From a bacterium BMS3Bbin03 (GTDB lineage: Bacteria; Zhuqueibacterota; JdFR-76; BMS3Abin05): a stretch of 64,000 bases of DNA. Shown piece after piece: positions 8,276 through 59,329 of this stretch. How positions within the stretch are numbered: the first letter of the stretch is position 1; each line of letters opens with the position of its first letter. A program made the translations under genes and the position numbers. Where the stretch lies: positions 38,535-102,534 of the forward strand of contig BDTM01000016.1 in assembly GCA_002898015.1 (NCBI GenBank). The letters are read 5' to 3'. Below the pieces are notes generated by a model, which was given only the letters and a program-made list of their open reading frames with translations, had not been told where the DNA came from and did not search any database.

Positions 8276-8290
8276 TGGAAGGATGCAAAG

Positions 8291-8638
8291 ATGAAATGCC
8301 GTACGCTGGCGGGTATTTTTTTGACAACCGGTTTGTTTCTCTTCAGTCAATCGGTGAACGCTCAGGAAAAGCCGAAAGAAGCGAAACCCGTCCGCAAAAC
8401 GGCGTCGAAAGAGACAGTGCTGAAGGCCATGCATGTGGAGGCGCATATTGAAAAACCGAGTGTTTCCATTGTCCCAAAGCGTATCAAGCCTGAATTGAAA
8501 GAAGTCGAATTTATCCGCCGGTCTTTCAGCAAAGAGATCAAAAACGTGCCCAGGCAGCTTCTTTACCTTGAGATGAAAAACTCGAAAAAGAGACAGGTTG
8601 CGGAAGCACGCCGGATGTTGAAGAAAAAACGTAAATAA
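8291..8638 (+). CDS. Small secreted Lys/Glu-rich protein (115 aa), function unknown
   Basis: Signal peptide MKCRTLAGIFLTTGLFLFSQSVNAQE. It is tightly packed between the giant TPR gene and the TolQ-like gene. Confidence 0.6.
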   Translation: MKCRTLAGIFLTTGLFLFSQSVNAQEKPKEAKPVRKTASKETVLKAMHVEAHIEKPSVSIVPKRIKPELKEVEFIRRSFSKEIKNVPRQLLYLEMKNSKKRQVAEARRMLKKKRK

Positions 8639-8672
8639 CTTTATCCCCAAAACTGAAATAGGAGGTATGAAC

Positions 8673-9332
8673 ATGGGAGAATTAGTCCAAATATTCCATG
8701 CATTCAAAATCGGATCACCCGGCTGGCTCTTTATGTGGCTGTTGTTGGTTGCGGCCGTGTTTGTGGTGGCTCTCGCAGTTGAGCGGACTTATTTTATCGG
8801 AATCCGTTCAAATATGAATGCCGACAAATTCATGAAAGACATCCGTCAAATGGTGTCCAAAGGGCAGTATAAAGAGGCCGTTCAGGTTTGTGAAAAACTG
8901 AAAGACAAAGCCCTGCCCTACGTGATTGGAACCGGCCTGCGGGTTCTGGACAGCGAAGGAGAAGTGGATTTCCGGACCGTTCAGAATGCCGTCGACGAAG
9001 GCACACTGGAGATTATTCCAAAATTGCAGCAGCGGACCGGATGGCTGGCAACGCTGGGAAATGTGGCGACCCTGCTGGGTTTAATGGGAACGATTTACGG
9101 TCTGATTCTGGCCTTTAGCTCTGTTTCGGCTCCGGGCGTGGATGCGGCCGAAAAATCCCGTCTGTTGGCGGCCGGTATTTCAACCGCCATGAACACCACG
9201 CTGGTGGGTCTGTCCATTGCCATTCCGGCGGTGTTGGTTTACACGTACATCCACAACAAAACCATGGGAATTATCGACGAAATTGACGAACACACCGTAA
9301 AACTGATTAATTTAATTACAGGGAACAAATAA
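8673..9332 (+). CDS. MotA/TolQ/ExbB-family proton channel
   Basis: Three TM segments and the family-typical C-terminal half (LATLGNVATLLGLMGTIYGLI...AAGISTAMNTTLVGLSIAIPAV). GGAGG at 8661-8665 favours the ATG at 8673 over the track start at 8667. Confidence 0.85.
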   Translation: MGELVQIFHAFKIGSPGWLFMWLLLVAAVFVVALAVERTYFIGIRSNMNADKFMKDIRQMVSKGQYKEAVQVCEKLKDKALPYVIGTGLRVLDSEGEVDFRTVQNAVDEGTLEIIPKLQQRTGWLATLGNVATLLGLMGTIYGLILAFSSVSAPGVDAAEKSRLLAAGISTAMNTTLVGLSIAIPAVLVYTYIHNKTMGIIDEIDEHTVKLINLITGNK

Positions 9333-14029: not shown

Positions 14030-14875
14030 ATGAAACTTAAACGCATTTTTATAGCAGCCCTGGTGGCCGTTTTTATGGTGGGTACTTTGTCCAATTTCAC
14101 GTATGCACAATCAAAAGCAAAAATGAAATTAGACGATTATAAACTGGAATTGGCAAAATGGCAAAAGACCGAAGCCGATGCCAGGGTTCAGATCGCAGCC
14201 GAGCAAAAGGAAATTGACGCTTTGAAGGGCGAAATTCAAACCACTCAAAATGAAATCGACAAAACTTGGGGTGAGATTTACGCGCTTTTAGGGACAGACA
14301 AAAGTGGTGTTGAAGCCTACAGTCAGTCTTTAAAAGACCTGGAAAACCAGGTGGATGGTCTGAGTGCTCTTTCTTCTGAAGAACTTTTCCAGAAAAGAAA
14401 TGAGATTGAAGCTCTGGAAAAGAAATTGGAAGAGGAAAAGGCAAACAAAATTTCCAATCTCTCGACAATGCAAGATCTGCTTGCCACAGTCGAAGGTAAA
14501 TTGATGCAGGTAAAAAACAAATTGCCCAAATCAATTTATGACATGTACAAAGTCGTTCGTGGTGATTATCTGTGGAAGATTTCCAAAAAAGCCGATATTT
14601 ACGGTGATCCCTACCAATGGATGAAAATTTACACGTACAACCGTGAAATGATCAAGAATCCTAATTTGATCTATCCGGACTGGAATCTGAAAATTGTGCG
14701 TAAAACCGGCCCCAATGAGTATGTGGTGACAAAGGGTGATTATCTGAAAAAGATTGCCGGAACCACATTGGGTGATCCGACGTTGTGGACCAAAATCTAC
14801 GAAGCGAACAAATCACTCATTAAAAACAAAAACTTGATTTATCCTTACGAGGTTTTTGTGATTCCCAAGCAATAG
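14030..14875 (+). CDS. Secreted coiled-coil protein with two C-terminal LysM domains
   Basis: Signal peptide (FIAALVAVFMVGTLSNFTYAQ), a long coiled coil, and two LysM-like units (YKVVRGDYLWKISKK...IYPDWNLKI; YVVTKGDYLKKIAG...IYPYEVFVIP). Confidence 0.8.
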   Translation: MKLKRIFIAALVAVFMVGTLSNFTYAQSKAKMKLDDYKLELAKWQKTEADARVQIAAEQKEIDALKGEIQTTQNEIDKTWGEIYALLGTDKSGVEAYSQSLKDLENQVDGLSALSSEELFQKRNEIEALEKKLEEEKANKISNLSTMQDLLATVEGKLMQVKNKLPKSIYDMYKVVRGDYLWKISKKADIYGDPYQWMKIYTYNREMIKNPNLIYPDWNLKIVRKTGPNEYVVTKGDYLKKIAGTTLGDPTLWTKIYEANKSLIKNKNLIYPYEVFVIPKQ

Positions 14876-14907
14876 ATCATTTCAAAAATAGGTGACCTGC
14901 TTTACAA

Positions 14908-14937
14908 AACCCGTTTCAATTTTTGGAACGGGTTTTT
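14908..14937 (+). terminator. Rho-independent terminator after the LysM gene
   Basis: AACCCGTT (14908-14915) / AACGGGTT (14927-14934) stem, then a T5 run. Confidence 0.65.
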
Positions 14938-14961
14938 GTAATTTTAGGCGTTAAATAACTA

Positions 14962-14990
14962 TTGCAAAAGAAGTAAATTTATTGTATTAT
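14962..14990 (+). promoter_or_regulatory. Sigma-70-type promoter upstream of phoH
   Basis: TTGCAA (14962-14967), a 17-nt spacer, then TG-TATTAT (extended -10, 14983-14990). Confidence 0.5.
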
Positions 14991-15035
14991 TTTAGTAACA
15001 GGTTAACAATATAAAGGAGTTATTGTCCCCAGAGA

Positions 15036-15986
15036 ATGCAAAAGAGATTTTCAATAAAAGGCGTCGATCAATTACAATTGTTGGGGTTTCAAGATGTAAA
15101 TCTTCGATCAATCCAGCAGCGGTTTTCTACAAAAATAATTATTCGGGGTACGGATGTTCTGCTCGACGGGGCGGCTGCCGAAGTCATTCAGGTGGAGAAA
15201 CTCTTTTCGGAATTGATTTTATTGATCAATAGAAATGGAAAAGTCAGCGAAAGAGATCTGGAAACACTCATTTATCTGGTCAAATCAATTAGTCCTGCCA
15301 CAAAAGAAGAAGACCTGAGTTCCGTTATTTTGGGTACAAAGTCAGATTTTATCCGGCCCAAAACAAAAGGCCAATTGGCGTACTACCAGTCTACGCTGAA
15401 AAATGACATCGTTTTTGTGATTGGCCCGGCGGGAACCGGTAAGACCTATTTGGCGGTAGCCATTGCCGTGGCGCATTTAAAGGCTCACGAAGTAAGCCGG
15501 ATCGTATTGGCCCGGCCGGCCGTGGAAGCCGGCGAAAGCCTCGGGTTTTTACCCGGTGATTTTCGTGAAAAGATCGATCCCTATCTGCGTCCCCTTTACG
15601 ATGCGCTTTATGATATGCTTTCCGGCGATAAACTCCGCCAGATGATTGAAAGGGGTGAAATTGAAATTGTGCCGCTGGCCTACATGCGCGGACGAACATT
15701 GAACAACGCATTTGTCATTCTGGATGAAGCGCAAAATACAACCCCCAACCAGATGAAGATGTTTTTAACAAGATTGGGTGTGAGTTCAAAAGCAATCATT
15801 ACCGGTGATATTACGCAGGTGGATCTGCCCGTAAAGCAAAAGTCCGGACTCATCATCATTCAGGATATTCTGAAAGGGATTGAAGGGATTGATTTCGTTT
15901 ATTTGGATGAGAAAGATGTGGTACGGCATCGTCTGGTGCGCGAAATTATTAAAGCTTATGAAGTGTACAATCAAAATTCCGACTAA
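15036..15986 (+). CDS. phoH: PhoH-family ATPase (YbeZ-like)
   Basis: Walker A GPAGTGKTYLAV and DEAQN Walker B. It has the conserved position upstream of ybeY. Confidence 0.9.
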   Translation: MQKRFSIKGVDQLQLLGFQDVNLRSIQQRFSTKIIIRGTDVLLDGAAAEVIQVEKLFSELILLINRNGKVSERDLETLIYLVKSISPATKEEDLSSVILGTKSDFIRPKTKGQLAYYQSTLKNDIVFVIGPAGTGKTYLAVAIAVAHLKAHEVSRIVLARPAVEAGESLGFLPGDFREKIDPYLRPLYDALYDMLSGDKLRQMIERGEIEIVPLAYMRGRTLNNAFVILDEAQNTTPNQMKMFLTRLGVSSKAIITGDITQVDLPVKQKSGLIIIQDILKGIEGIDFVYLDEKDVVRHRLVREIIKAYEVYNQNSD

Positions 15987-45010: not shown

Positions 45011-45026
45011 TGGCACACAGATTGCT
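45011..45026 (+). promoter_or_regulatory. Sigma-54 (-24/-12) promoter
   Basis: TGGCACACAGATTGCT is an exact match to TGGCAC-N5-TTGCW. It lies 120 nt upstream of the ATG at 45146. Confidence 0.7.
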
Positions 45027-45145: not shown

Positions 45146-45436
45146 ATGGGTGCTCAATTGGTATATTTGCCGTTTTTATCCTGGCTATGGTTAACCATCA
45201 TTGCTGTTGTAATCTCTTTGATATGGTGGTTTGCGCTGAACGTTAAAACCGCGGGAGGATATTGGTTTGAATTAGTAATAGCCTGGATCGGTGCCTGGCT
45301 GGGTACGCCTGTTTTTGGGAATTGGGTATGGACACCTAACCATATTTCAATTATTCCGGCCGTTTTAGGTGCAATTGCAGCCATATTTCTTATTGATGGA
45401 TACACCAAAATTATGGCAGCTTGTCACAAAGAATAA
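45146..45436 (+). CDS. GlsB/YeaQ/YmgE-family small membrane protein
   Basis: 96 aa, 3-4 TM segments, Gly-rich helices (VIAWIGAWLGTPVFG; AVLGAIAAIFLIDGY). Strong SD GGGAGGTGA. Confidence 0.65.
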   Translation: MGAQLVYLPFLSWLWLTIIAVVISLIWWFALNVKTAGGYWFELVIAWIGAWLGTPVFGNWVWTPNHISIIPAVLGAIAAIFLIDGYTKIMAACHKE

Positions 45437-48047: not shown

Positions 48048-49568
48048 ATGCTTTTTACGCATTCAAAATCAGGGCGTAAACCATTCAAACGACTGATTTC
48101 CGGCATACAATTTAAAATTGTGATTAGTACCACTTTGGTTGTGGCCGTAGCCGTAGGCGTATCCACCTGGTTTGCAATCAAACTATTAGAACGTCAATTA
48201 ATAGAAAGTACCAAACACAAAGTAAAAACAGCCTGTGAAAGAATTTCCGGTAATATTTCAATGGCGATGGGAAACGGCCATGTCCCAAGTATCCGACATA
48301 CTTTTGCACTGATTCGCTCTTATCCGCATTATAGAGTCCAGATGTATATTACCGACTCGCTGGGCACTGTTCTGATTGCCACTGATAGTCTTCTGGTCGG
48401 CAAAAAGGTCAACATCGGTAAAATAACCCCCAATAGCTCCGGGGTCACGGTTTCCACAGAACGTGTTCAAAGATCAGATGTTGTGGTGGCCCGCCAGCTA
48501 ATTTTAAATAAGCCGGCATGTTATCACTGCCACGATCGCAGGAAAAAGATTAACGGAATCCTGCAAGTAAGGGTTGCACTTTCGGAATTCATGCAGGAAT
48601 TTTCACTATTTCGAAAACTCATGATCGGAAACGGGATTGTTATTTTTTTAGTGATGACTGTGACGCTGAGTTTGCTTCTTGGATTAATCGTCGGCCGGCC
48701 CTTAAAGAAAATGTCGCAGGCGATGGGAAAAGTCGAAGCGGGTGATTTGAGCGTACGGGTAAAGTTTAATCGCCGGGATGAAATTGGTCTCCTCGGAAAG
48801 AGTTTTAATGCAATGGTACAACGACTCGCCAATTCAATACATCAGATCACAAGCAGCCATCAGAATGAGCTGCAGCACGCGGACCGGCTGGCGGCATTGG
48901 GTGAACTGGCAGCCGGCATTGCCCATGAAATTCGTAATCCTCTCGCCGGAATTTCAGGTGCCGTTCAGGTGCTGGCAAGCGAGTTGGACAAGGACGACCC
49001 GCACCGCGAAGTGATGGACGAGATTCAGAAGGAGATTAAACGCCTCGATAATTCCCTGAAGAATTTTCTTGCTTATGCCCGGCCCAGCGAACCGAAGTTT
49101 CAGCCGTTTGATATTCACGATGTCATTGAACGTGCCTTGACGCTTTGTCTTCGCAGCGGGCAGTTTTCGGGCATTAAATTAATCCGGGATTTCCGGATTC
49201 ATCAGAAAAAACTCATCTTTGACCCTGCCCTGATGCAGCAGGTATTCATGAACATTATTTTAAACTCACTGCAGGCCATGAACCACTCCGGCCAATTAAG
49301 CATAATCACCCGGCTTCGAACGGATGTTCCCAATATGAATAAAGCCATTGAAATCGTTATTGCCGATACCGGCCCCGGGATTCCGTCGGAAGATTTAAAT
49401 AAAATATTTCGGCCTTTTTTCACGTCGAAGCATCAGGGTACCGGTTTGGGGTTAACCATCGCCTGGCGGATTGTGGCGCAGCACGGGGGTTCCGTATCGG
49501 TTGAAAGTGAGTTGGGAAAAGGGACCCGGTTTATCATTATTTTCCCATATGCGGAATCTTCAAATTAG
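48048..49568 (+). CDS. Sensor histidine kinase (periplasmic loop with CXXCH, HAMP, HisKA, HATPase_c)
   Basis: Two TM segments flank a ~150-aa loop containing CYHCH (48519-48533). HAMP follows, then H-box AHEIRNPL, N-box NIILNSLQAM, G1 DTGPGI and G2 GTGLGL. Confidence 0.9.
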   Translation: MLFTHSKSGRKPFKRLISGIQFKIVISTTLVVAVAVGVSTWFAIKLLERQLIESTKHKVKTACERISGNISMAMGNGHVPSIRHTFALIRSYPHYRVQMYITDSLGTVLIATDSLLVGKKVNIGKITPNSSGVTVSTERVQRSDVVVARQLILNKPACYHCHDRRKKINGILQVRVALSEFMQEFSLFRKLMIGNGIVIFLVMTVTLSLLLGLIVGRPLKKMSQAMGKVEAGDLSVRVKFNRRDEIGLLGKSFNAMVQRLANSIHQITSSHQNELQHADRLAALGELAAGIAHEIRNPLAGISGAVQVLASELDKDDPHREVMDEIQKEIKRLDNSLKNFLAYARPSEPKFQPFDIHDVIERALTLCLRSGQFSGIKLIRDFRIHQKKLIFDPALMQQVFMNIILNSLQAMNHSGQLSIITRLRTDVPNMNKAIEIVIADTGPGIPSEDLNKIFRPFFTSKHQGTGLGLTIAWRIVAQHGGSVSVESELGKGTRFIIIFPYAESSN

Positions 49569-49578
49569 AGTAAATCGT

Positions 49579-50949
49579 ATGACGAAGGGCAAAGTACTTA
49601 TTGTCGATGACGACAAGCTGATCTGTTGGTCTTTGGAGCAGGTTTTAAACAAAGAGGGCTATGATGTCACATTTGTTCACCTTGCCAATGATGCCTTATC
49701 GGAGATTTTTAAGGAGCCTCCGGATATTCTCCTGCTGGATCTTTTGCTTCCGGATTTGTCCGGGGTAGAGGTTTTAAAACGCCTCAAAAAAAAGGACTAT
49801 CACATCCCCGTGCTGGTAATTTCCGCGATGGCCACCGTTGATTCTGCCGTTCAGGCCATGAAACTGGGAGCCTATGATTACATTAGCAAGCCTTTTAATA
49901 TGGATGCGGTAAAGCTTGCCATTCAAAAGGCATTGGAAGTTGACCATCTGCGCAGTGAAGTGGATTATCATCGGACCAGGGAAAGCCGAATTTATGGTTT
50001 TAATAATTTTGTGAGCGGTCATTCTTCTATCCGTGAACTTCTTCGGATGGCAAGAAGGGTGGCCTCCAGCGAAGCTCCAACCATACTGATTCAGGGCGAA
50101 AGCGGAACGGGCAAAGATCTTCTGGCCCGGGTGATACACTATCAGAGCAAGCGGGCAAATTCACCGTTGGTAGAGCTGAATTGTACGGCTGTACCTGAAA
50201 CGCTGTTGGAAAGCGAACTGTTCGGACATGAGCAGGGTGCCTTTACAGATGCCAAGAAGATGAAACGCGGTTTATTTGAAATTGCAAACAAGGGGACAAT
50301 CCTGCTCGAAGAAATTGGTGAAATACCCCAACCCATTCAGGTAAAACTGCTCAAGGTTTTGGAAGACCGGCGTCTGCGCCGGGTCGGAGGCCTGAAAAAC
50401 ATTGCGATCGATGTTAGAGTTATTGCCACCACGAACCGGGACCTGATTGCAGAAACAAAAGCCGGAAATTTCAGGACAGATCTTTTTTATCGTTTGAATG
50501 TCATTACGCTTTTAATTCCGCCGTTACGAGAGCGCAAAGGAGATATCTTACTGCTTACCAAATATTTTCTCAACCGGTATAATCATCAATTTCACCGGAA
50601 TATTAAAAGTCTCTCAAAGGAGGCTGAAAAGCTTTTAATCAACTACAATTGGCCTGGAAATATTCGCCAATTAAAAAATGTTTTGGAACGGATTATGATT
50701 TTGGAGGATACGGAAGAATTACTGCCGGATCATCTTCCTTATGAAATTCAATCCTACACGGGAGATGAAGCCCATGCTCAGGCATTCATAAAACTCCCGC
50801 ACATTGGCTTAAAACTTGGCGAGGTAGAAAAAAATCTAATCAACCAGGCGCTGGATTATACTGAAGGGAATCAGGTGCAGGCGGCCAAATTACTGGGAAT
50901 CAGCCGGGATGCCCTGCGTCGAAAAATGATAAAATTCAAGTTGATGTAA
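49579..50949 (+). CDS. Sigma-54-dependent response regulator (NtrC family: REC + AAA+ + Fis-type HTH)
   Basis: REC (IVDDD, LLLDLLLPD), GESGTGKDLLA Walker A, GAFTDA (GAFTGA variant), and the C-terminal HTH QVQAAKLLGISRDALRRKM. The track start 49471 overlaps the kinase. Confidence 0.9.
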   Translation: MTKGKVLIVDDDKLICWSLEQVLNKEGYDVTFVHLANDALSEIFKEPPDILLLDLLLPDLSGVEVLKRLKKKDYHIPVLVISAMATVDSAVQAMKLGAYDYISKPFNMDAVKLAIQKALEVDHLRSEVDYHRTRESRIYGFNNFVSGHSSIRELLRMARRVASSEAPTILIQGESGTGKDLLARVIHYQSKRANSPLVELNCTAVPETLLESELFGHEQGAFTDAKKMKRGLFEIANKGTILLEEIGEIPQPIQVKLLKVLEDRRLRRVGGLKNIAIDVRVIATTNRDLIAETKAGNFRTDLFYRLNVITLLIPPLRERKGDILLLTKYFLNRYNHQFHRNIKSLSKEAEKLLINYNWPGNIRQLKNVLERIMILEDTEELLPDHLPYEIQSYTGDEAHAQAFIKLPHIGLKLGEVEKNLINQALDYTEGNQVQAAKLLGISRDALRRKMIKFKLM

Positions 50950-50998
50950 AAATGGCATATTTGTTGCACTTTTCGCTGTAAAAAAAGCCGTTTTTAAA

Positions 50999-51418
50999 AT
51001 GAAAATTTTACTCATTGAAGACGAAAAATTACTGCTTTGGTCTTTAAAGAGATCCTTAGCCAGGGAGGGCTTCGAGGTCATTGCTGAGGATAGCGGGGAA
51101 AAAGCATTCGGATGGCTTCCTAAATGTACGTTTGACTGGGTTATCACGGATTACCGGCTGCCGGGGATCAACGGCCTGGAAGTATTGCGTGAGGTGAAGC
51201 AGTGCCAGCCTAATGTGAAGACAATGATGCTTTCGGCTTTCGGCTCTCCTGAACTTCTAAAAGATTTAGAACAGGACGGAATCCTTTGTTTTTTGCCAAA
51301 GCCATTTAGTATTGATGAGCTCATTAAGACTCTTCGGGAAACATCATTGAACACGGTCAAAAAGAATCGTTTTTCGCTGCCGCTTTTATTGGTTCTCGGC
51401 TTCGCTTTTATTGGATGA
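50999..51418 (+). CDS. Single-domain response regulator (receiver only)
   Basis: LIEDE, VITDYRLPGINGLE, MLSAFG and LPKPF. The last ~25 aa are hydrophobic. Confidence 0.8.
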   Translation: MKILLIEDEKLLLWSLKRSLAREGFEVIAEDSGEKAFGWLPKCTFDWVITDYRLPGINGLEVLREVKQCQPNVKTMMLSAFGSPELLKDLEQDGILCFLPKPFSIDELIKTLRETSLNTVKKNRFSLPLLLVLGFAFIG

Positions 51419-51424
51419 CAATTG

Positions 51425-51462
51425 TGTGCGAATTGACACAGTGTCCTGTGCGGATACACACA
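51425..51462. promoter_or_regulatory. Tandem 16-mers TGTGCGAATTGACACA / TGTGCGGATACACACA (candidate upstream activator sites)
   Basis: 13/16 identical, offset 22 nt, and each is a TGTG-N8-CACA dyad. They lie about 130-165 bp upstream of the -24/-12 element at 51589. Confidence 0.45.
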
Positions 51463-51588
51463 TTTGGCGGACATTTGTTTTTATAATTACCGGTTCGGGC
51501 CGGCCGGAAATGAAAATTAAATCGTAAACTAATAAAATAACAATTGTTTTATTATTGATAATTGTGTATCTTAAAATAAGCTATTTCA

Positions 51589-51604
51589 TGGCATTACTTT
51601 TGCG
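51589..51604 (+). promoter_or_regulatory. Sigma-54 (-24/-12) promoter of the NHL/cytochrome cluster
   Basis: TGGCATTACTTTTGCG. GG (51590-1) and GC (51602-3) have canonical 12-nt spacing. Confidence 0.6.
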
Positions 51605-51720
51605 ATATTGAGATGAAAATGGGAAGTATCGGCGTTACATTTGGAATTCAGGAATGATCAGGAATAAAACAAAAGGTCACTGTTTTGGTGAAAAATCCAT
51701 TCGATATTTCGGTTAATAAA

Positions 51721-52821
51721 ATGATACGGGGGTCTGTATTTTTCATCTTAATGGCTACACTGATTACGATGACTCTGGGCTGCGCCGGGACACGTCCTTC
51801 GGGGACTAAAAATCCGGCGGATTTTGTATGGCCGCTCCCTCCGGACCAACCCAGAATACGTTTTGTCCGAAGCATTCATTCCGAAATGGCTTTGGGACAA
51901 CGAAAACGGTCCCTTGCGAGGAAGATATTTGAAAGCTTATTTGGCCGGCCCCGTTTGATCGCTCTGAGAAAACCATTGTCCGTGCATGTCGACAAACGCG
52001 GCCGCCTTTTGGTGGTGGATACCGGCTGGCATAAAGTTCTGATTTTTGACTTTGCCAACAAAAAAATGAGTTTTTTGGGAAATAGCGGAAGGGGCATGCT
52101 GCTGAATCCGTTGGGGGTGACTTCCGATGAAGAAGGTAATATCTATGTGACCGATGCCGACGGCAAGCGGGTCATTGTTTACAATTCCGAAGGCGCCTAT
52201 TTGAGTGCATTTGGGGGGCAAAATATCCTGGTTCGTCCTTCCGGAATTGCGGTCAATTCAAAACTTGGCTATATTTACGTGGTCGATACGTGGGCCCATC
52301 AAGTAAAAGTGTTTGATCGGAAACGGGACAATCTGCTGTTCACCATCGGCAAACAGGGTAAAAAGTTTAAAGAAGTAATCAAAGGCAGTCTCGATGAAAT
52401 CTGGAACCGGGGCAGTGAGCCGGGGGAATTTCGTTTTCCCACAAATATTGCGATTGGACCCCAGGGTCATATCTATGTAGTCGACACCATGAATTTTCGC
52501 GTTCAAGTTTTTGATTCGCAGGGGAAATTTATCAGGAGTTTTGGTCAAATTGGAAATACTCCCGGGACGTTTTCCCGGCCCAAAGGAATTGGACTGGACA
52601 GCGAAGGCCATATTTATGTAGCCGACGCTGCTTTTAATAATGTGCAGATCTTTAACCAGGATGGAAAGATTCTGCTTGCTTTCGGTAACTTCGGCTCCGG
52701 TCTGGCTGATCTGCGACTTCCTGCAGGCCTTTGTGTCGACATTCGCCAACGGATTTATGTAGTTGATCAGCTTAATCATAGGGTACAGGTCTATCAATAT
52801 CTGGCTAAGAAGGGATCTTAA
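51721..52821 (+). CDS. NHL-repeat six-bladed beta-propeller protein, probable lipoprotein
   Basis: Signal peptide ending LITMTLGC. Six repeats of the form P.G[IV]A.D..G.IYV.D..N.R[VI]QVF. An alternative GTG start lies at 51685. Confidence 0.85.
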   Translation: MIRGSVFFILMATLITMTLGCAGTRPSGTKNPADFVWPLPPDQPRIRFVRSIHSEMALGQRKRSLARKIFESLFGRPRLIALRKPLSVHVDKRGRLLVVDTGWHKVLIFDFANKKMSFLGNSGRGMLLNPLGVTSDEEGNIYVTDADGKRVIVYNSEGAYLSAFGGQNILVRPSGIAVNSKLGYIYVVDTWAHQVKVFDRKRDNLLFTIGKQGKKFKEVIKGSLDEIWNRGSEPGEFRFPTNIAIGPQGHIYVVDTMNFRVQVFDSQGKFIRSFGQIGNTPGTFSRPKGIGLDSEGHIYVADAAFNNVQIFNQDGKILLAFGNFGSGLADLRLPAGLCVDIRQRIYVVDQLNHRVQVYQYLAKKGS

Positions 52822-52875
52822 AGATGATGTTGATGGACACTTATAATAATAATTCTACCAAAGGGAGGTGAAAAA

Positions 52876-53580
52876 ATGAAGAAAATTTTTGTTCTATTTG
52901 GCGCCCTTGTTCTTACGTTCAGTCTTGTATGGCAAGGGAATAGTTATGCCCAATTTGGAAACAAAGTTATGGACACGCCGCATAATTTACGTAAAGCTTC
53001 ATCAATGGGCATGCCTCTTACGGATTGGGGCGGAATTTGTGTATACTGTCACACCCCCCATAATAACAATACGGCAATTGAGGCGCCTTTATGGAACCGC
53101 AGCACACCGACGGGTCCATATACCATGTACAGCAGTCCATCGATTGATATGACAATCGCCAGCTCGCCGCAGGGTGTTTCCCTGGCGTGTTTATCATGTC
53201 ATGACAATACCATTGGACTTGATCAGATCATTAATGTGCCTGTTTCTAGTTCGAGCAGTGCTTCAGGGACAACCATTAATGCCTGTTCTCAGAGTTGTCA
53301 TACCAGTTCAAATCACGTGGCTGGTTTGAATTTTGAGGGCACAAACATTGGTACGGATTTAAGGAACGATCATCCGATTTCGGTTACTTATGATCCAAGC
53401 GTTGATCCGAAATTTCATCCCGCCTCAAACGGTAAAGTTGGGAATTTGCCCCTGTATGGATCGAATCATGACCAGGTGGAATGTGCAACCTGTCATAATC
53501 CGCATGACGAAACGAATCGTCCGTTTTTGAGGATAAGTAATGCCAATAGTGCCCTATGTTTAACCTGCCACGATATTTAA
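52876..53580 (+). CDS. Secreted multihaem c-type cytochrome (234 aa; 4 CXXCH + 1 CX3CH)
   Basis: Signal peptide ...GNSYA/QF. Haem motifs are CVYCH, CLSCH, CSQSCH, CATCH and CLTCH, with seven additional His. Strong SD AGGGAGGTGA. Confidence 0.9.
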   Translation: MKKIFVLFGALVLTFSLVWQGNSYAQFGNKVMDTPHNLRKASSMGMPLTDWGGICVYCHTPHNNNTAIEAPLWNRSTPTGPYTMYSSPSIDMTIASSPQGVSLACLSCHDNTIGLDQIINVPVSSSSSASGTTINACSQSCHTSSNHVAGLNFEGTNIGTDLRNDHPISVTYDPSVDPKFHPASNGKVGNLPLYGSNHDQVECATCHNPHDETNRPFLRISNANSALCLTCHDI

Positions 53581-53663
53581 TTTTCTTGGCAGATTTACGT
53601 TTGAATAAATTCTACGTCGGAACATTAACCCGTAAATGGGTATTGAACCGGAGCAAAAGTACT

Positions 53664-53700
53664 AAAGGGGTGAGGTTTCGCCTCACCCCTTTTAATTTTT
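53664..53700 (+). terminator. Strong rho-independent terminator inside the cluster
   Basis: GGGGTGAGG (53667-75) / CCTCACCCC (53681-89), loop TTTCG, flanked by AAA...TTTTAATTTTTT. Confidence 0.8.
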
Positions 53701-53716
53701 TAAAAAGGTTTTACGG

Positions 53717-54694
53717 ATGGGAAAACAAAAGTTAAGATTCACTTTGGTGCTGCCCTGGATCGGCTTATTTCTATTGATTCTGTCAACCGGCGCGCAGGCC
53801 GCAAAAAAGGTCGTGGCGACGGTTAATGGTGCAGACATCACGAATGATGCGCTTCTGGCCGGGATTAATCAAAAACTCCCGCTGATTTCCATTCACAAAA
53901 GTGTGTCCGAGCAGAAATATAAAGAAATCCGCCGCCAGGTGCTGAATCAATTAATTGATGAAGAGCTTTTGTATCAGGAGGCGAAGAGACAAAAATTCAA
54001 GGCGGACAAGACTGAATTAAATCGACATATTGCGTATATGAAAAAGGCTTATCCGACTAAAAAGACTTTTCGGGAGCAATTGGCCAAAACCGGCCTCAGT
54101 TACAGGCAATGGATCGCCAAATTGAAAAGGCGCTTATTGATCAACCAGGTTCGGCAGCGGGAAATTGTGGACAAGGTTACGATCACCGACCGGGATGTGC
54201 GCCGGTATTACCGGAAAAATAAAAAGAAATTTATTGTACCGCAGCGTTTGAAAATTTTGCATATTCTTATTTCGGTGGAACCGGGTGCAATGGAAGTCGG
54301 CTGGAAAGCAGGATTGAAAAAGGCCCAAATGGTTTATAAAAATATTATGGCGGGGGAAGACTTTTCCAAAGCTGCCAAAGAGTATTCGGCTGACTCTACC
54401 AGCCGCGCACGCGGGGGAGATATTGGGTGGGTTCATCTTGGACAACTGCTTCCTGAATTGGATCAAGTTGCCCGCCGGATGAAAATTGGGGAAGTAAGCC
54501 ATCCCATTCGTACCATATACGGCTATCATATTATTAAATTGGTGGATCACAAACCACGCAAACAATTGTCGTTTAGTGAAATTGATATAAAAGAATTAAA
54601 AGAGAAGTTGCGCAGGAAACGGATTGAAGAGCGCAGGAATGAATTACTCACAAAGCTTCGGGCACAGGCCAAGATCCGTATTATGAATCCCTGA
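53717..54694 (+). CDS. Periplasmic parvulin-type peptidyl-prolyl isomerase (SurA/PrsA-like)
   Basis: Signal peptide (...STGAQAAKK), an N-terminal chaperone-like region, and a parvulin core (ILHILI...FSKAAKEYSADSTSRARGGDIGWV...GYHIIKL). Confidence 0.85.
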   Translation: MGKQKLRFTLVLPWIGLFLLILSTGAQAAKKVVATVNGADITNDALLAGINQKLPLISIHKSVSEQKYKEIRRQVLNQLIDEELLYQEAKRQKFKADKTELNRHIAYMKKAYPTKKTFREQLAKTGLSYRQWIAKLKRRLLINQVRQREIVDKVTITDRDVRRYYRKNKKKFIVPQRLKILHILISVEPGAMEVGWKAGLKKAQMVYKNIMAGEDFSKAAKEYSADSTSRARGGDIGWVHLGQLLPELDQVARRMKIGEVSHPIRTIYGYHIIKLVDHKPRKQLSFSEIDIKELKEKLRRKRIEERRNELLTKLRAQAKIRIMNP

Positions 54695-54735
54695 ATTTGT
54701 GATTTGCGAGATTCGCCGCGCGCAGGTAATTGAAA

Positions 54736-55323
54736 ATGAAATTTTTTTTTTCGAAATTCCGGTTCTCGAACGGCTTATTTTTTGTCTTATTTTTCAGCGG
54801 CCTGTTTTTAGTGCAGTGCAGTCCCGCTGCCCGGCACCGGGTGTTAAGCTTTTTTTTTGACGGCGTTCCGCCATTAAAACAATCGCCCGCACTGGCCCGT
54901 AAAAATAATGCGGGACAGTCGGCATTATCGCTTAATACGGCAAATGCCGGAAGCCTTTCTACAGCGCAGCCTGTTATGTATTATCACCCGCAAACGGGTG
55001 AAAACCGGTGTGATGCTTGCCATAATGTAAGCCAGTCTTATCATCTTCTGGCGCCTCCGGACAGCCTTTGTCTGATATGTCATGACGACAAAACGGATGC
55101 GAAATATGTTCATCCTCCGGTAGAAGAGGGGGAGTGCCTGGATTGTCATAATCCCCATGGAACTAAAAATAAATATCTATTATTAAAAACCGGACAGGCA
55201 CTCTGTTTTCAGTGTCATGATGAATCGGAAATCAAGAATACGGAACACAGAGTGATCGGAAAAGAGGCCTGTACGGTATGCCATAATCCTCATAATTCAG
55301 ATAATCAGTATTTTTTGAGGTAA
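54736..55323 (+). CDS. Membrane-anchored or lipoprotein pentahaem c-type cytochrome
   Basis: Hydrophobic N-terminus ending LFLVQC. Haem motifs are CDACH, CLICH, CLDCH, CFQCH and CTVCH, with repeated H-x(n)-CxxCHNPH pattern. An alternative TTG start lies at 54730. Confidence 0.85.
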   Translation: MKFFFSKFRFSNGLFFVLFFSGLFLVQCSPAARHRVLSFFFDGVPPLKQSPALARKNNAGQSALSLNTANAGSLSTAQPVMYYHPQTGENRCDACHNVSQSYHLLAPPDSLCLICHDDKTDAKYVHPPVEEGECLDCHNPHGTKNKYLLLKTGQALCFQCHDESEIKNTEHRVIGKEACTVCHNPHNSDNQYFLR

Positions 55324-55327
55324 CGTG

Positions 55328-57292
55328 ATGCGGGGTCTGACCTTAAAAAAAATAATCGGTTGTACACTGCTCTTTGTTCTGATCGCCGGCACGTCCGCCC
55401 CGTTGTCTGCCCAGCAGGTGGCGATGTTTCGCATGACCAAATTAACAGGCTCATTGAAGCTGAGATTTATGGACGAGCGCCGAATAAAACCCCAATATTC
55501 AAAAAGACCCTTCTTTAAAGAAACCCTGGAGTTACGCAATAAAGGATTTATTATTAGTCCGAACGTTTTCCTTTTTCAATGGGTCGGCAATCTGAGTCTC
55601 TCCCAGGAACACTATGTTTACACGAATTTTGAGCAGTATTCGAAAGCACGATTTCTAAATCATTATCTCTCAGGTTCATTTTTTAACAGAAGTGCTTATC
55701 CAACCTCATTTGTGTGGAGTAAACTTAACAATGTATTAAATACGGATTATGGCGTGCGTACTTCGTATGATATTAACCGGTATCAAGCGAGCACTATCTT
55801 CAATAAAAAGTTTTTGCCTTCAACCCTCAGGATAGGCATAGAAGAAATGCGCGAGGAATGGTCGAGGGAAGGCTGGGCAACCCGGCTGAATCAATTGCGA
55901 AGAACGATTCAATATGACGCCCATCGAGGGAATAAATCGAATATTAGTCTCAGTTATGACTTGCTGGATATCCGGGACCGCATTTACGCAGATCGAAGCT
56001 ACGTATCCCATAACGCCCATTTAAATTTTATTCGTTACTTTGGCCGTGATTCAAGTCAGACCTGGAATGGTGTCTTTCGCTTTTATCGCCGAAAAGGACT
56101 TCGAAATTATCAGAATATCAGGACAATTCAGACCATGCAACTGAAACACAACTATGGATTTTCCAGTCGATATCGATACAGTGTTTCCAGCATACATTTA
56201 AAAAATTATTCGTCTTTATTGCAAACGGCGTTTTTTACCCTAAATCATCAACTCTTTTCCAGTCTAAACACTACGGTTGGGGCCGGGGGGACCTACGGCA
56301 AATTAACGGACGGCAAGGAATCCTCATACGCATTTAACGGGGGTGTGAATTACATTAAACATGTGCCGCTTTCCGGGAATCTGCGTATTGTGTACAACCG
56401 CGCCTATTCCATAGAAGATCGCCACCTGAAGGGCACGTTACAAACAGTTGTACGAGAACGCCATCTGTTAGGAACCGACCTTCCCATATTTTTGGATGAA
56501 CGAAACATCCTTATTTCCACAATTGTGGTCTATGATGAACGGGGAGAGATCATTTATGAAGAAGGCGAAAACAAAGATTACATTGTTCGTGTTATCGATG
56601 ATTTAGTTGAGATTTATCGCAATCCTTTGGGACGAATACAGGGGAATCAAAGCATATTGGTTGATTATCAGTTTCGAACGCTGCCTTCTATGAGGTATTC
56701 AACAAACACGACTATTTTTAATATAGGCCTCAGTTTTAAATGGATATCGTTTTACTATCGAGTCAATCATCATTATCAGAATTTATTGAGGGGTTCATTG
56801 GAGAAGGAATCTCTTCTTCAAAACATGCTTATTAAAACAATCGGTTTGAAAATGTCCCGGCGCGGGAATACCTGGGGCACTTCGCTTTTTGTTGAACAGA
56901 AGATTCGGGAATCAAATTTAGTGGCTTACCGTTTATTGGAAGTGCGCAATATTTCTTTTCTGCAACTGAACCGGGTGATGACGCTCTCCTCCAAATTTAC
57001 GCTGTCTCTGTTTGATTACACTCATGTAAATCGAAATATCAATATTTACAGTTATCGTCCGGAGCTCCAATGGTATCCAACAAACCTGTTTTCAATAAAA
57101 GTTTATGGGGAACTGCGCATTCGGCGGGATTCTGCAAGTTATGAACAATTTATTCTCGATTTGGCCGGATTTGCTCAGTGGTATTGGAGAGTGATGAAAT
57201 TGCGATTATCGTATCATCGCCAGACGTGGAGAATAGGCCCTCGCCAGCTAAAAGTCAATCGTTTCACTGTGGACTTTGAACGGTACTTTTAA
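55328..57292 (+). CDS. Large outer-membrane beta-barrel protein (about 654 aa)
   Basis: Signal peptide (LLFVLIAGTSAPLSAQQ). Alternating hydrophobic/aromatic beta-strand pattern is rich in Y/R/N/S, and the C-terminus ...VDFERYF ends in Phe, as typical of OMPs. Confidence 0.75.
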   Translation: MRGLTLKKIIGCTLLFVLIAGTSAPLSAQQVAMFRMTKLTGSLKLRFMDERRIKPQYSKRPFFKETLELRNKGFIISPNVFLFQWVGNLSLSQEHYVYTNFEQYSKARFLNHYLSGSFFNRSAYPTSFVWSKLNNVLNTDYGVRTSYDINRYQASTIFNKKFLPSTLRIGIEEMREEWSREGWATRLNQLRRTIQYDAHRGNKSNISLSYDLLDIRDRIYADRSYVSHNAHLNFIRYFGRDSSQTWNGVFRFYRRKGLRNYQNIRTIQTMQLKHNYGFSSRYRYSVSSIHLKNYSSLLQTAFFTLNHQLFSSLNTTVGAGGTYGKLTDGKESSYAFNGGVNYIKHVPLSGNLRIVYNRAYSIEDRHLKGTLQTVVRERHLLGTDLPIFLDERNILISTIVVYDERGEIIYEEGENKDYIVRVIDDLVEIYRNPLGRIQGNQSILVDYQFRTLPSMRYSTNTTIFNIGLSFKWISFYYRVNHHYQNLLRGSLEKESLLQNMLIKTIGLKMSRRGNTWGTSLFVEQKIRESNLVAYRLLEVRNISFLQLNRVMTLSSKFTLSLFDYTHVNRNINIYSYRPELQWYPTNLFSIKVYGELRIRRDSASYEQFILDLAGFAQWYWRVMKLRLSYHRQTWRIGPRQLKVNRFTVDFERYF

Positions 57293-57589: not shown

Positions 57590-59329
57590 ATGACGATACT
57601 TGGAATTTCTGCTTTTTACCACGATTCTACTGCGGCGCTTGTGCAGGACGGGATGTTAATTGCCGCTGCCCAGGAAGAACGGTTTACACGTAAAAAGCAC
57701 GATTCTTCCTTTCCGGTCAACGCCATTCGTTTTTGCCTGAATGAAGCCGGTGTCTCTCCGAATGAATTGGATGCCGTGACGTATTATGAAAAACCATTTA
57801 TCAAATTTGAGCGGATTTTGCTCACCTATTTGGGCACGTTCCCGAAGAGTATGCATTCTTATTTAAAGGCTCTTCCTCTCTGGCTCAAGCAAAAACTCTG
57901 GATTTCACATCTCATTCGGAAGGAATTAGATTACGACGGGGAGATTTTGTTTACGGAACATCACCAGTCACATGCCGGAGCAGCCTTTCTGTCGTCTCCT
58001 TTTGAAGAGGCGGCAATTCTTACGCTGGACGGTGTCGGCGAATGGGCCACGGCCACGATGGGAATCGGGAAGGGGAACCGGATTGAGATTTTAAAAGAGA
58101 TTCATTTCCCGCATTCACTTGGGCTGTTTTACAGCGCGCTGACTTACTATTTGGGATTTCGGGTAAACAGTGCCGAGTATAAGGTGATGGGATTGGCTCC
58201 GTATGGAAAACCCCGTCTTATGGACAAAATGCGGGAATTGATTCACTATTTTCCGGATGGCGCTTTCTCCCTTAATATGAAGTATTTTGCCTTCGATTAC
58301 GGCCTCACCATGACCAACCGGCGGTTCGAAAAGCTGTTTGGTCAGCCCAGACGCCGACCGGATCTCGAATTAACCGGTTTTCACAGGGATGTGGCGGCCT
58401 CGGGACAGAAAATGCTGGAAGAGATTGTTTTAAATGCCGCAAGGATTTTGCGGGAAGAAACGGGACAAAAAAATCTCTGTTTGTCCGGCGGTGTGGCGCT
58501 GAACAGCGTGGCCAATGGGCGCCTGCTGCGGGAAAAGATTTTCGATAATATTTTTATCCAGCCGGCAGCGAGTGACGCAGGAAGCGCTCTCGGAGCAGCA
58601 CTTTTGGCCGCAAATCAATTAAAAAAAGAGAAGCGCCGTTTTGTGATGACACACGCTTACTGGGGAAGTCTTGCAAAGAATGCGGAGATTGAACGCTTTT
58701 TGAATCACTATAAAATTCCTTTTCAAAAATATTCCGAAGAAAAATTGACCCGCAAAACCGCCGCACTGCTGGCAGAGGGGATGATCGTGGGTTGGTTTCA
58801 GGGGCGATCCGAATTTGGGCCGAGAGCCCTGGGCAATCGCTCTATTCTGGCCGATCCCAGGCGGCCCGACATGAAAGACAGGATCAACGCCCGGGTAAAA
58901 TTCCGGGAGGCATTTCGACCCTTTGCCCCGTCCGTGATTCTTGAGAAAATGCCAGACTATTTTGATCTGGATTGCCCCAGTCCGTTCATGCTTTTTGTGG
59001 CGCCGGTGAAACAGCCGGATAAAATCCCCGCCGTCACACACATTGACGGCACCGCCCGCGTGCAGACCGTGACGCAGGAGACGAATCCACGCTTCTACCG
59101 GTTACTGGAAGCATTCGAAGAAAAAACGGGGATACCGGCACTTTTGAATACATCCTTTAATGTGCGCGGCGAACCGATAGTGGAGACACCCGAAGAGGCC
59201 TTCACCTGTTTCATGCGAACCGGAATGGATGCTCTATCCATGGGAGATTATTTATTGGATAAATTGGAAATGCCGCCCATTGACTTTTTCGATTTTTTAG
59301 ATAAACCGTTTAAATTCGAGGAGGACTAA
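57590..59329 (+). CDS. NodU/CmcH-family carbamoyltransferase
   Basis: ILGISAFYHDSTAALV, EERFTRKKHD, HHQSHAGAAF, and the C-terminal NTSFNVRGEPIV. Confidence 0.9.
   Translation: MTILGISAFYHDSTAALVQDGMLIAAAQEERFTRKKHDSSFPVNAIRFCLNEAGVSPNELDAVTYYEKPFIKFERILLTYLGTFPKSMHSYLKALPLWLKQKLWISHLIRKELDYDGEILFTEHHQSHAGAAFLSSPFEEAAILTLDGVGEWATATMGIGKGNRIEILKEIHFPHSLGLFYSALTYYLGFRVNSAEYKVMGLAPYGKPRLMDKMRELIHYFPDGAFSLNMKYFAFDYGLTMTNRRFEKLFGQPRRRPDLELTGFHRDVAASGQKMLEEIVLNAARILREETGQKNLCLSGGVALNSVANGRLLREKIFDNIFIQPAASDAGSALGAALLAANQLKKEKRRFVMTHAYWGSLAKNAEIERFLNHYKIPFQKYSEEKLTRKTAALLAEGMIVGWFQGRSEFGPRALGNRSILADPRRPDMKDRINARVKFREAFRPFAPSVILEKMPDYFDLDCPSPFMLFVAPVKQPDKIPAVTHIDGTARVQTVTQETNPRFYRLLEAFEEKTGIPALLNTSFNVRGEPIVETPEEAFTCFMRTGMDALSMGDYLLDKLEMPPIDFFDFLDKPFKFEED

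Follow-up and report, generated by a model that had tools for sequence, protein, structure and literature searches.

The window analysed here is a stretch of 64,000 nucleotides (nt) from the bacterium BMS3Bbin03 (assembly GCA_002898015.1, contig BDTM01000016.1, positions 38,535 to 102,534 of the forward strand). It carries at 52876–53580, on the + strand, a gene for a small multihaem cytochrome that we designate OmcE5; all positions given below are those of the window. Judged by its sequence and predicted fold, OmcE5 is clearly a homologue of the nanowire subunit OmcE, and a pentahaem variant of it rather than a canonical tetrahaem member. The reading that we favour, with a probability of roughly 0.6, is that OmcE5 is a secreted pentahaem nanowire subunit of the OmcE family, expressed under a design that provides it in excess. 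To our knowledge, only a few cytochrome nanowire structures are available, and the bacterial ones all come from Desulfuromonadia. The locus shows an OmcE-type system with a barrel, a propeller and an accessory cytochrome in a Calditrichota/KSB1-like lineage.

OmcE5 Is a Homologue of OmcE

The reading frame (ATG 52876, TAA 53580) encodes 234 amino acids (aa), of which aa 1–25 form a Sec-type signal peptide with predicted cleavage after SYA25, leaving a mature protein of about 209 aa. Five haem-binding motifs are present, namely C55VYCH, C105LSCH, C137SQSCH (a CX3CH motif), C203ATCH and C228LTCH, and 7 of the 12 histidines lie outside them. An earlier note on this DNA had given the same size, four CXXCH motifs, one CSQSCH and seven non-motif histidines, and these counts are correct. 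Its description of the seven as spare is not: four are the conserved distal ligands of OmcE, and the other three are not conserved.

The search of all PDB chains with phmmer gave only two significant matches, the third-best reaching E=0.77. The first, 7TFS_A (E=4.1e-26, query residues 30–232, 35% identity over 221 aligned columns), is the OmcE nanowire of Geobacter sulfurreducens (GSU0618), which is built of tetrahaem subunits. The second, 9YUQ_N (E=6.2e-25, query residues 2–233), belongs to a structure of 16 chains reported as the bundled OmcE nanowire of Desulfuromonas soudanensis WTL (DSOUD_2954) (bioRxiv 10.1101/2025.10.22.684050). The AlphaFold2 (AF2) model of OmcE5, built from 116 homologues, has a mostly coil architecture with a predicted local distance difference test score (pLDDT) of 88.5 and a predicted template modelling score (pTM) of 0.80, and Foldseek found for it a single PDB fold match at E≤0.001, again 7TFS (E=3e-10, TMq 0.59, TMt 0.67). 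The earlier note had guessed at the OmcE class from size and haem number, and both searches bear this out. It had also likened OmcE5 to the archaeal ECN subunits, for which we found no sequence support, as neither phmmer nor Foldseek recovered 8E5F or 8E5G (PcECN, AvECN) from the PDB at E≤10. No detectable similarity to OmcS was found among the PDB chains with phmmer.

The conservation pattern agrees with these matches. Eight histidines (H36, H59, H62, H109, H166, H207, H210 and H232) and all eight core cysteines (C55/58, C105/108, C203/206 and C228/231) are invariant in 116–122 homologues, including both solved OmcEs. Four of these histidines, H36, H62, H166 and H210, lie outside the motifs and complete the eight axial ligands of the haem chain. 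The four bis-His haems of OmcE5 are thereby shown, by homology, to reproduce the OmcE chain. OmcE has exactly four haems, whereas OmcE5 carries in addition a fifth conserved C-X3-CH motif at aa 137–142.

A Conserved Fifth Haem Motif and a Clade-Specific Methionine

The fifth motif, CSQSCH (C137–H142; 53284–53301, + strand), lies inside an insertion of about 20 aa with the consensus TI..C...CH.G..P.GG.NFEG, which is a gap in tetrahaem relatives and in both solved OmcEs. Its conservation was surveyed in the 120 closest database proteins and then, with the addition of 150 representatives of 50% clusters, in 260 complete proteins. Among the 120 closest, 64 have C-X2-4-CH in the column of C137SQSCH142; in these the two cysteines and the histidine are invariant, while the inner residues vary (CATQCH, CGTQCH, CSNTCH and others). 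Across the larger set the site is present in 77 of the 260 homologues, as CX3CH in about 51, as CXXCH in about 25 and as CX4CH in one. The interchange of CX3CH and CXXCH in one column points to haem attachment rather than to a disulfide or a metal site. CSQSCH is therefore not a chance motif, and by its conservation it is a real fifth motif of the haem type. CX3CH is reported to be a rare but documented haem-binding motif, and the insertion agrees with the 'step gain by insertion' of a haem motif reported for the OmcE family.

Five bis-His haems need ten histidines, whereas only nine are invariant in the five-motif clade. H147, H181 and H198 were considered as the sixth ligand of the fifth haem and rejected, since none is conserved across this clade, which favours Met46 as the ligand. 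A scan for residues conserved in at least 80% of the five-motif group and in at most 20% of the four-motif group returned G28, P35, M46, I134, C137, C141, H142, F153, G155 and R215; Met46 (codon 53011–53013, + strand) is the only one of them outside the motif that is able to serve as an axial ligand. Methionine occupies this column in 60 of 64 five-motif proteins and in 0 of 58 four-motif proteins. The alignment of 268 sequences with MAFFT blurred the column and was replaced by a count of methionines in the loop H36..C55; the loop holds a methionine in 70 of 77 five-motif and 10 of 183 four-motif proteins (Fisher p of about 1e-43, inflated by shared ancestry). Among the 7 five-motif proteins without a loop methionine, 5 carry a histidine there. 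With only nine invariant histidines and a clade-specific methionine that tracks the motif, the fifth haem of OmcE5 is most probably ligated by His142 and Met46, and it would be a surface-exposed side haem of higher potential.

The Ser-rich stretch VSSSSSASGTT (aa 123–133; 53242–53274, + strand) stands just before the insertion. The earlier note was right about its presence, but relatives are S/T/G-rich at this place without conservation of sequence, and the alignment describes a variable surface loop adjoining the haem-5 insertion.

Expression Signature of the OmcE5 Gene

The OmcE5 gene is preceded by the Shine-Dalgarno (SD) sequence AGGGAGGTGA (52862–52871, + strand), with a GGAGG core 7 nt before the ATG. 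The strength of SD sequences was expressed as the energy of the duplex with the anti-SD in the 3' tail of 16S rRNA. With -17.2 kcal/mol against -0.1 to -7.0 kcal/mol for the remaining genes of the cluster, that of OmcE5 is indeed the strongest of the cluster, as the earlier note had proposed, and it ranks second among the 43 long open reading frames (ORFs) of the window (median -6.4 kcal/mol). The strong SD is kept in the relatives L001–L005 (-13 to -17.5 kcal/mol), in which the neighbouring genes have weak ones. For a wider comparison we used 85 fetched loci, for which a contig scan of GTDB species genomes supplied the best 80 of at least 570 stretches. The median SD energies in them are -8.7 kcal/mol for OmcE-like genes, -6.55 for genes of NHL-propeller proteins, -6.1 for NtrC-type regulators, -5.5 for peptidyl-prolyl isomerases (PPIases), -5.4 for second cytochromes and -4.3 for barrels, and the OmcE-like SDs are stronger than the NHL SDs across loci (paired Wilcoxon p=2.5e-6).

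Downstream, between the OmcE5 and PPIase genes, lies an intrinsic-terminator-like hairpin with a T-tract (53664–53700, + strand). The hairpin itself (53664–53692) has a stem of 13 pairs and a 3-nt loop and is followed by TAATTTTTT up to 53700. The 9-bp GC-rich hairpin with a U-tract that had been noted earlier is the core of this stem (GGGGTGAGG/CCTCACCCC). No other terminator-like structure in the window, on either strand, is as strong as the full hairpin (-22.0 kcal/mol). A scan of the window with a generic terminator consensus found 13 sites against 10.9 expected, so that it is the strength and conservation of this hairpin, and not the number of sites, that count. In five relatives (L001, L002, L003, L005 and L006) a hairpin stands at the same position, 15–25 nt before the PPIase start, with stem sequences that differ among them by compensatory changes. 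Across the fetched loci, a terminator-like hairpin within 160 nt downstream was found for 36 of 67 OmcE-like genes, compared with 10 of 76 NHL, 4 of 24 PPIase, 8 of 30 second-cytochrome, 1 of 21 barrel and 4 of 21 NtrC-type genes, that is, a rate of 5–27% in the neighbouring classes. Neither the hairpin nor the leader matched a known RNA family in an Rfam search of 51300–54000 at E≤1.

The idea of a strong ribosome-binding site combined with an internal attenuator is thus supported by anatomy, by conservation and by enrichment across the 85 loci. The combination of strong SD and post-gene hairpin, as read from the DNA, is the design expected for a subunit that outnumbers its machinery. As for the role of the hairpin, we propose that it acts as a partial terminator or as a 3' stabiliser, the latter giving the same excess effect.

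The probable promoter of the operon is a sigma54-type site, TGGCATTACTTTTGCG (51589–51604, + strand), upstream of the NHL gene. A TGGCAY-N5-TTGCN site is found at this place in the window and in six relatives (L001, L002, L003, L005, L006 and L008), and in none of these seven does a sigma54-type site occur in either of the intervals that flank the OmcE5 gene, on the NHL side or on the PPIase side. In the window, the NHL–OmcE5 interval contains no sigma70-like site either. In L003 and L005, the NHL stop and the OmcE5 start are 2–4 nt apart. This tight spacing, together with a sigma54 site only upstream of the NHL gene, makes OmcE5 the second gene of a sigma54 operon.

Some further sequence elements were observed. 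A gene for a LysM-domain protein (14030–14875, + strand) has an SD, GATCAGGAGGTGAT (-17.7 kcal/mol), that is stronger than any other in the window, and is itself followed by a terminator-like hairpin at 14906–14936. A short motif, AACCGGAG, lies in 53645–53663, 10–15 nt upstream of the OmcE5 hairpin; it is common to the window, L001 and L003 and was not found in L002, L005 and L006, and it could reflect relatedness or be a processing or binding site. A second sigma54-type promoter-like site, TGGCATATTTGTTGCA (50953–50968, + strand; one mismatch to TGGCAC-N5-TTGCW), stands upstream of the receiver-only regulator described below and is also present in L001. Finally, a perfect sigma54 consensus, TGGCACACAGATTGCT, occurs at 45011–45026 (+ strand), about 120 nt upstream of an ORF for a 96-aa membrane protein (45146–45436), and could be part of the NtrC-type regulon considered here or of a different one.

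The Gene Cluster and Its Conservation

OmcE5 is encoded within a cluster of genes on the + strand. The first is a sensor histidine kinase (HAMP-HisKA-HATPase by Pfam; 48048–49568), the putative sensor of the module, with homologues at the equivalent place in L002, L003, L005, L006 and L008. It is followed by an NtrC-type sigma54-dependent response regulator (REC-AAA-HTH_8; Pfam Sigma54_activat 2e-63) at 49579–50949; its ORF opens with TTG at 49471, and the probable start, ATG 49579, yields 456 aa, matching the relatives, in which its place upstream of the NHL gene is conserved. A stand-alone receiver-domain response regulator (50999–51418; Pfam Response_reg 1e-22), present also in L001, precedes the gene for a six-bladed beta-propeller of NHL repeats (51721–52821; Pfam NHL 7e-37), which is a probable lipoprotein (...LITMTLGC) and starts probably at ATG 51721 within an ORF from TTG 51685.

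Downstream of OmcE5 lies a periplasmic peptidyl-prolyl isomerase with SurA-N and PpiC-type domains (53717–54694; Pfam Rotamase 2e-24, SurA_N_3 7e-16), which directly follows the OmcE-like gene in L001–L003, L005, L006 and about 20 further loci. The second multihaem cytochrome (54730–55323), with five CXXCH motifs in paired-CXXCH repeats (Pfam Paired_CXXCH_1 4e-27), is a probable lipoprotein, having Cys30 after a hydrophobic leader, and homologues occupy the equivalent place in relatives. The cluster ends with a large outer-membrane beta-barrel of 654 aa (55328–57292), whose AF2 model (pLDDT 80) is almost all-beta. The signal peptide of this protein is followed by about 28 long antiparallel strands with a small domain inserted at aa 366–450, and the chain ends in ...ERYF. 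Pfam gave no match for it; in Foldseek its fold matches only large outer-membrane barrels, namely TonB-dependent transporters, LptD and MtrB. Its downstream position is conserved in relatives. A word index found 11 homologues, and phmmer detects the barrel in about 22 of the 85 loci; it evolves quickly, so that failure to detect it elsewhere is uninformative.

The order kinase, sigma54 activator, NHL, OmcE5, PPIase, cytochrome and barrel is kept in L001–L003, L005 and L006 (63–88% identity; metagenome-assembled genomes (MAGs) of Calditrichota and KSB1), while L004, a relative from Krumholzibacteria, is without the PPIase. In the 85 loci, the OmcE-like gene is accompanied by an NHL gene in about 75, by a PPIase in about 25 and by a detectable barrel in about 22. 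In the rest of the window a Pfam scan found housekeeping genes, and it showed neither a cluster for cytochrome maturation nor one for glycosylation adjoining the module.

Directly after the barrel gene come a NodU/CmcH-type carbamoyltransferase (57590–59329, + strand) and a 60-aa DUF5989 ORF. In L001 the barrel gene is followed by an inositol-phosphatase gene instead, so the carbamoyltransferase and the DUF5989 ORF are probably unrelated to the module. The window also matches a 175-kb contig, NODE_15 of ENA ERZ1742238, with a coverage of 457x, which suggests that the source organism dominates that sample, perhaps an enrichment.

A Model of OmcE5 Expression and Assembly

These features can be combined into the following model. 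The histidine kinase and the NtrC-type regulator would activate the sigma54 promoter at 51589–51604, from which the NHL-propeller lipoprotein gene and then the OmcE5 gene would be transcribed. The near-consensus SD would give OmcE5 far more translation than its neighbours, and the strong hairpin after its stop codon would end or stabilise most of the transcripts, so that only read-through transcripts would reach the PPIase, second cytochrome and barrel genes. The outcome would be a large excess of the OmcE5 subunit over the helper proteins. In this part of the model we infer that termination at the hairpin is partial.

The assembly steps are drawn by analogy with Geobacter and Desulfuromonas OmcE. 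OmcE5, exported by Sec and loaded with haem, including a haem that probably occupies the CX3CH site and is bound by Met46, would be handled by the SurA-like PPIase and would pass through, or anchor on, the barrel of about 28 strands together with the propeller lipoprotein. By the same analogy, it would polymerise by donating a conserved histidine to the haem of the next subunit. Polymerisation and export via the barrel would thus yield a conductive filament outside the cell, in which each subunit carries one side haem.

We suggest tentatively, as a possibility that goes beyond the subunit role itself, that this clade may build a third functional type of wire, in which an insulated four-haem backbone is joined by a His/Met side-haem tap attached through CX3CH, and whose subunit is supplied in excess by a conserved strong SD and a leaky terminator under sigma54 control. 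If this is true, electrons would leave for external partners, or be taken up from them, through the side haem.

Alternative Explanations

The OmcE fold does not by itself imply a filament. OmcE5 could be a non-polymerising cytochrome, an abundant extracellular or outer-face partner of a porin–cytochrome conduit in a terminal reductase or electron-uptake module, with the barrel sheathing the second cytochrome and the propeller stabilising the complex; we consider this less probable but the chief competitor. Clusters of NHL-propeller and multihaem-cytochrome genes in sulfate reducers have been read as outer-membrane cytochrome complexes, not as wires (Deng et al. 2018). Among the Foldseek matches of the barrel, the highest TM-score, albeit a low one (TMq 0.37), is that of the MtrB chain from the Mtr complex, the OmcE-like family is huge and mostly uncharacterised, and a surface-exposed His/Met haem would suit a site of interaction with a donor or acceptor. 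On the other hand, all eight OmcE histidines are invariant in OmcE5, among them the N-terminal H36, and OmcE needs a histidine from the neighbouring subunit; an expression design that favours subunit excess fits a polymer better than a 1:1 complex, and both solved members of the family are filaments. A soluble periplasmic electron carrier of the c3/c7 type, as implied by public annotation, in which proteins of the OmcE5 type are called 'cytochrome c3 family protein' or 'hypothetical protein', is very improbable. Pfam does report Cytochrome_C7 (33 bits) and Cytochrom_c3_2 (23 bits, below the cut-off), but both weak matches are limited to aa ~196–233, the terminal paired-CXXCH segment, and with the matches restricted to the last ~35 residues the public names are uninformative. 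In fold, and in sequence over its full length, OmcE5 matches OmcE, the phmmer and Foldseek searches of the PDB returned no structure of the c3 or c7 type with its compact core, and the conserved neighbourhood includes an outer-membrane barrel and a propeller lipoprotein.

A different objection concerns expression only. The hairpin might be the plain end of a two-gene operon, with the PPIase, cytochrome and barrel genes transcribed independently and no attenuation at all, as a hairpin of -22 kcal/mol with a good T-tract suggests efficient termination, no intergenic gap of the cluster is as long as the 136 nt that separate OmcE5 from the PPIase gene, and the promoter types of this lineage are not modelled by our scans. 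We regard it as unlikely. No sigma70- or sigma54-like site was found on the + strand of 53581–53716, within this limit of the scans; transcription from any promoter upstream of the hairpin would meet the hairpin itself, the T-tract is only 16 nt from the PPIase ATG, and the order OmcE, hairpin, PPIase, cytochrome and barrel is kept in six loci. From the 16-nt spacing and the lack of a promoter-like site, we infer that the three downstream genes depend on read-through past the hairpin. The nanowire subunit made in excess remains our preferred reading, and several points weigh against it: a promoter of an unmodelled type could lie upstream of the hairpin; shared ancestry inflates the association of the methionine with the fifth motif; CX3CH sites may be matured inefficiently, the occupancy of the fifth haem being a prediction; two propellers and two accessory cytochromes are reported for the clusters of Desulfuromonadia, against a single one of each in the window; and the family comprises 4615 clusters at 50% identity, with only a subset reportedly regarded as likely filament formers by the authors of the structural work.

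Comparison with Known Nanowire Systems

In OmcE filaments, one histidine is reported to be donated by the adjacent subunit. Minimal omcE clusters are described as consisting of two multihaem cytochromes, two beta-propeller lipoproteins, OmcE and a large beta-barrel, and Petersen et al. use the barrel and the propeller to select likely wire-forming homologues (bioRxiv 10.1101/2025.10.22.684050 for both). Of these parts the window contains the barrel, the NHL propeller lipoprotein and an additional multihaem cytochrome. OmcE5 shares with G. sulfurreducens OmcE four CXXCH motifs and eight axial histidines in equal order, a similar length, a Sec signal peptide and, as reported for its neighbourhood, a beta-propeller lipoprotein, a further multihaem cytochrome and a large barrel nearby. 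It differs in the CX3CH fifth motif within the insertion of about 20 aa and in the clade-specific methionine. Its cluster contains a SurA-like PPIase and a sigma54 two-component system, the window has no glycosylation genes clustered beside it, and its host belongs not to the Desulfuromonadia but to uncultured bacteria of Calditrichota/KSB1-like affiliation. The OmcE of D. soudanensis, homologous over the full length, likewise has no glycosylation cluster in the published description and its gene is set in a minimal cluster that comprises cytochromes, propellers and a barrel. Unlike OmcE5, it is tetrahaem, forms bundled antiparallel nanowires and is accompanied by two propellers and two cytochromes, with no PPIase mentioned.

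The closest parallels are OmcE-like proteins with five CxxCH motifs, for which a preserved chain with an added solvent-exposed haem has been predicted (Petersen et al., bioRxiv 10.1101/2025.10.22.684050); pentahaem homologues were also noted by Soares et al. (PMC11492766; bioRxiv 10.1101/2025.05.29.656830). Both reports are bioinformatic only. These proteins resemble OmcE5 in length, in having one extra motif and in being found in uncultured hosts outside the classic electroactive phyla. In OmcE5 and about 50 close relatives, however, the extra motif is CX3CH, and for OmcE5 the sixth ligand is predicted to be methionine, not histidine. No description of the CX3CH and methionine variant, or of its expression architecture, was found in the available portions of Petersen et al. 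and Soares et al. The existence of pentahaem OmcE-like proteins is therefore already known from these preprints. The additions suggested by our analysis are the CX3CH and Met spelling, an expression signature general across phyla, and the extension of the family to further phyla.

Two further systems offer partial analogies. In the OmcS/osc cluster of G. sulfurreducens a filament subunit is likewise encoded beside companions, for which roles in folding (OscH) and in secretion (OscE, OscF and OscG) have been suggested; a porin-mounted model of assembly has been put forward, and one of the OmcS haems is ligated by a histidine of the neighbouring subunit, as in OmcE. OmcS is hexahaem and shows no detectable sequence similarity to OmcE5. 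The 'leaky' nanowire of OmcZ, also from G. sulfurreducens, has one solvent-exposed branching haem per subunit and one non-canonical motif, and thus provides a functional analogy for the side haem, but its fold is unrelated, it has eight haems, no histidine is shared between subunits and its maturation involves proteolysis.

Distribution and Significance

The OmcE-like family is very large: a word index gave 6251 matches, grouping at 50% identity gave 4615 clusters, and the GTDB species genomes hold at least 570 stretches. Relatives occur, among others, in KSB1, Calditrichota, Gemmatimonadota, Acidobacteriota, Nitrospirota, Nitrospinota, Planctomycetota, Verrucomicrobiota, Bacteroidota/Ignavibacteria, Chlorobiota, Campylobacterota and Gammaproteobacteria. 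They extend to well over a dozen phyla, compared with the five reported (Petersen et al., bioRxiv 10.1101/2025.10.22.684050). No Geobacter locus is among the best 80 loci of the contig scan. Pentahaem members of the CXXCH type are widespread. Within the fetched loci, CX3CH at the fifth-site column is found only in L001–L003, L005 and L006 (Calditrichota, KSB1 and similar uncultured bacteria) and in a paralogue from Eisenbacteria (L012).

Public names of these proteins miss the OmcE identity, the fifth site and the expression signature, and surveys that count CXXCH would class five-motif proteins with CX3CH as tetrahaem. A fifth haem held by His142 and Met46, if true, would change the wire from 'insulated' to 'tapped'. 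The expression signature bears on the way in which cells make more wire subunit than assembly machinery, and the strong SD with a post-gene hairpin could help to select likely polymer subunits from the thousands of multihaem cytochromes.

Several related genes were observed in the course of the survey. The relative L002 (Calditrichota) has tandem five-motif OmcE-like genes at 6919–7656 (CASFCH) and 8001–8708 (CVGTCH) of its locus, both with fairly strong SDs (-12 and -13 kcal/mol). A subfamily of paralogues (L005 at 14818–15531, P0044–P0048, P0051, P0059 and P0068) is marked by CSNTCH, by 'NHHP' in place of 'NDHP' and by 11–14 histidines, and shares contigs with the major OmcE5 gene (P0009/P0046 and P0032/P0059). 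In L005 the copy is located after the barrel gene, and its SD is weak at -5.0 kcal/mol. Such paralogues, of which the window holds no copy, may be minor subunits serving as tip, anchor or terminator.

Many OmcE-type clusters of Planctomycetota, Acidobacteriota, Verrucomicrobiota, Ignavibacteria and others encode, next to the NHL propeller gene, a 12-haem-like cytochrome of 560–900 aa with an OmcE-like region, 11 CXXCH motifs and one CX3CH ('C-x-L-x-CH') (L040, L041, L045, L049, L050, L052, L055, L056, L062, L063, L065, L066, L068, L074, L075, L078, L079 and L084). These cytochromes appear to form a 12-haem family that recurs and has a conserved CX3CH site of its own. Lastly, the locus L060, from a MAG labelled as a Thermoplasmata archaeon, contains a histidine kinase, a sigma54 NtrC-type activator, NHL propellers and OmcE-like genes; the module is of bacterial type, and the contig is therefore probably mis-binned.

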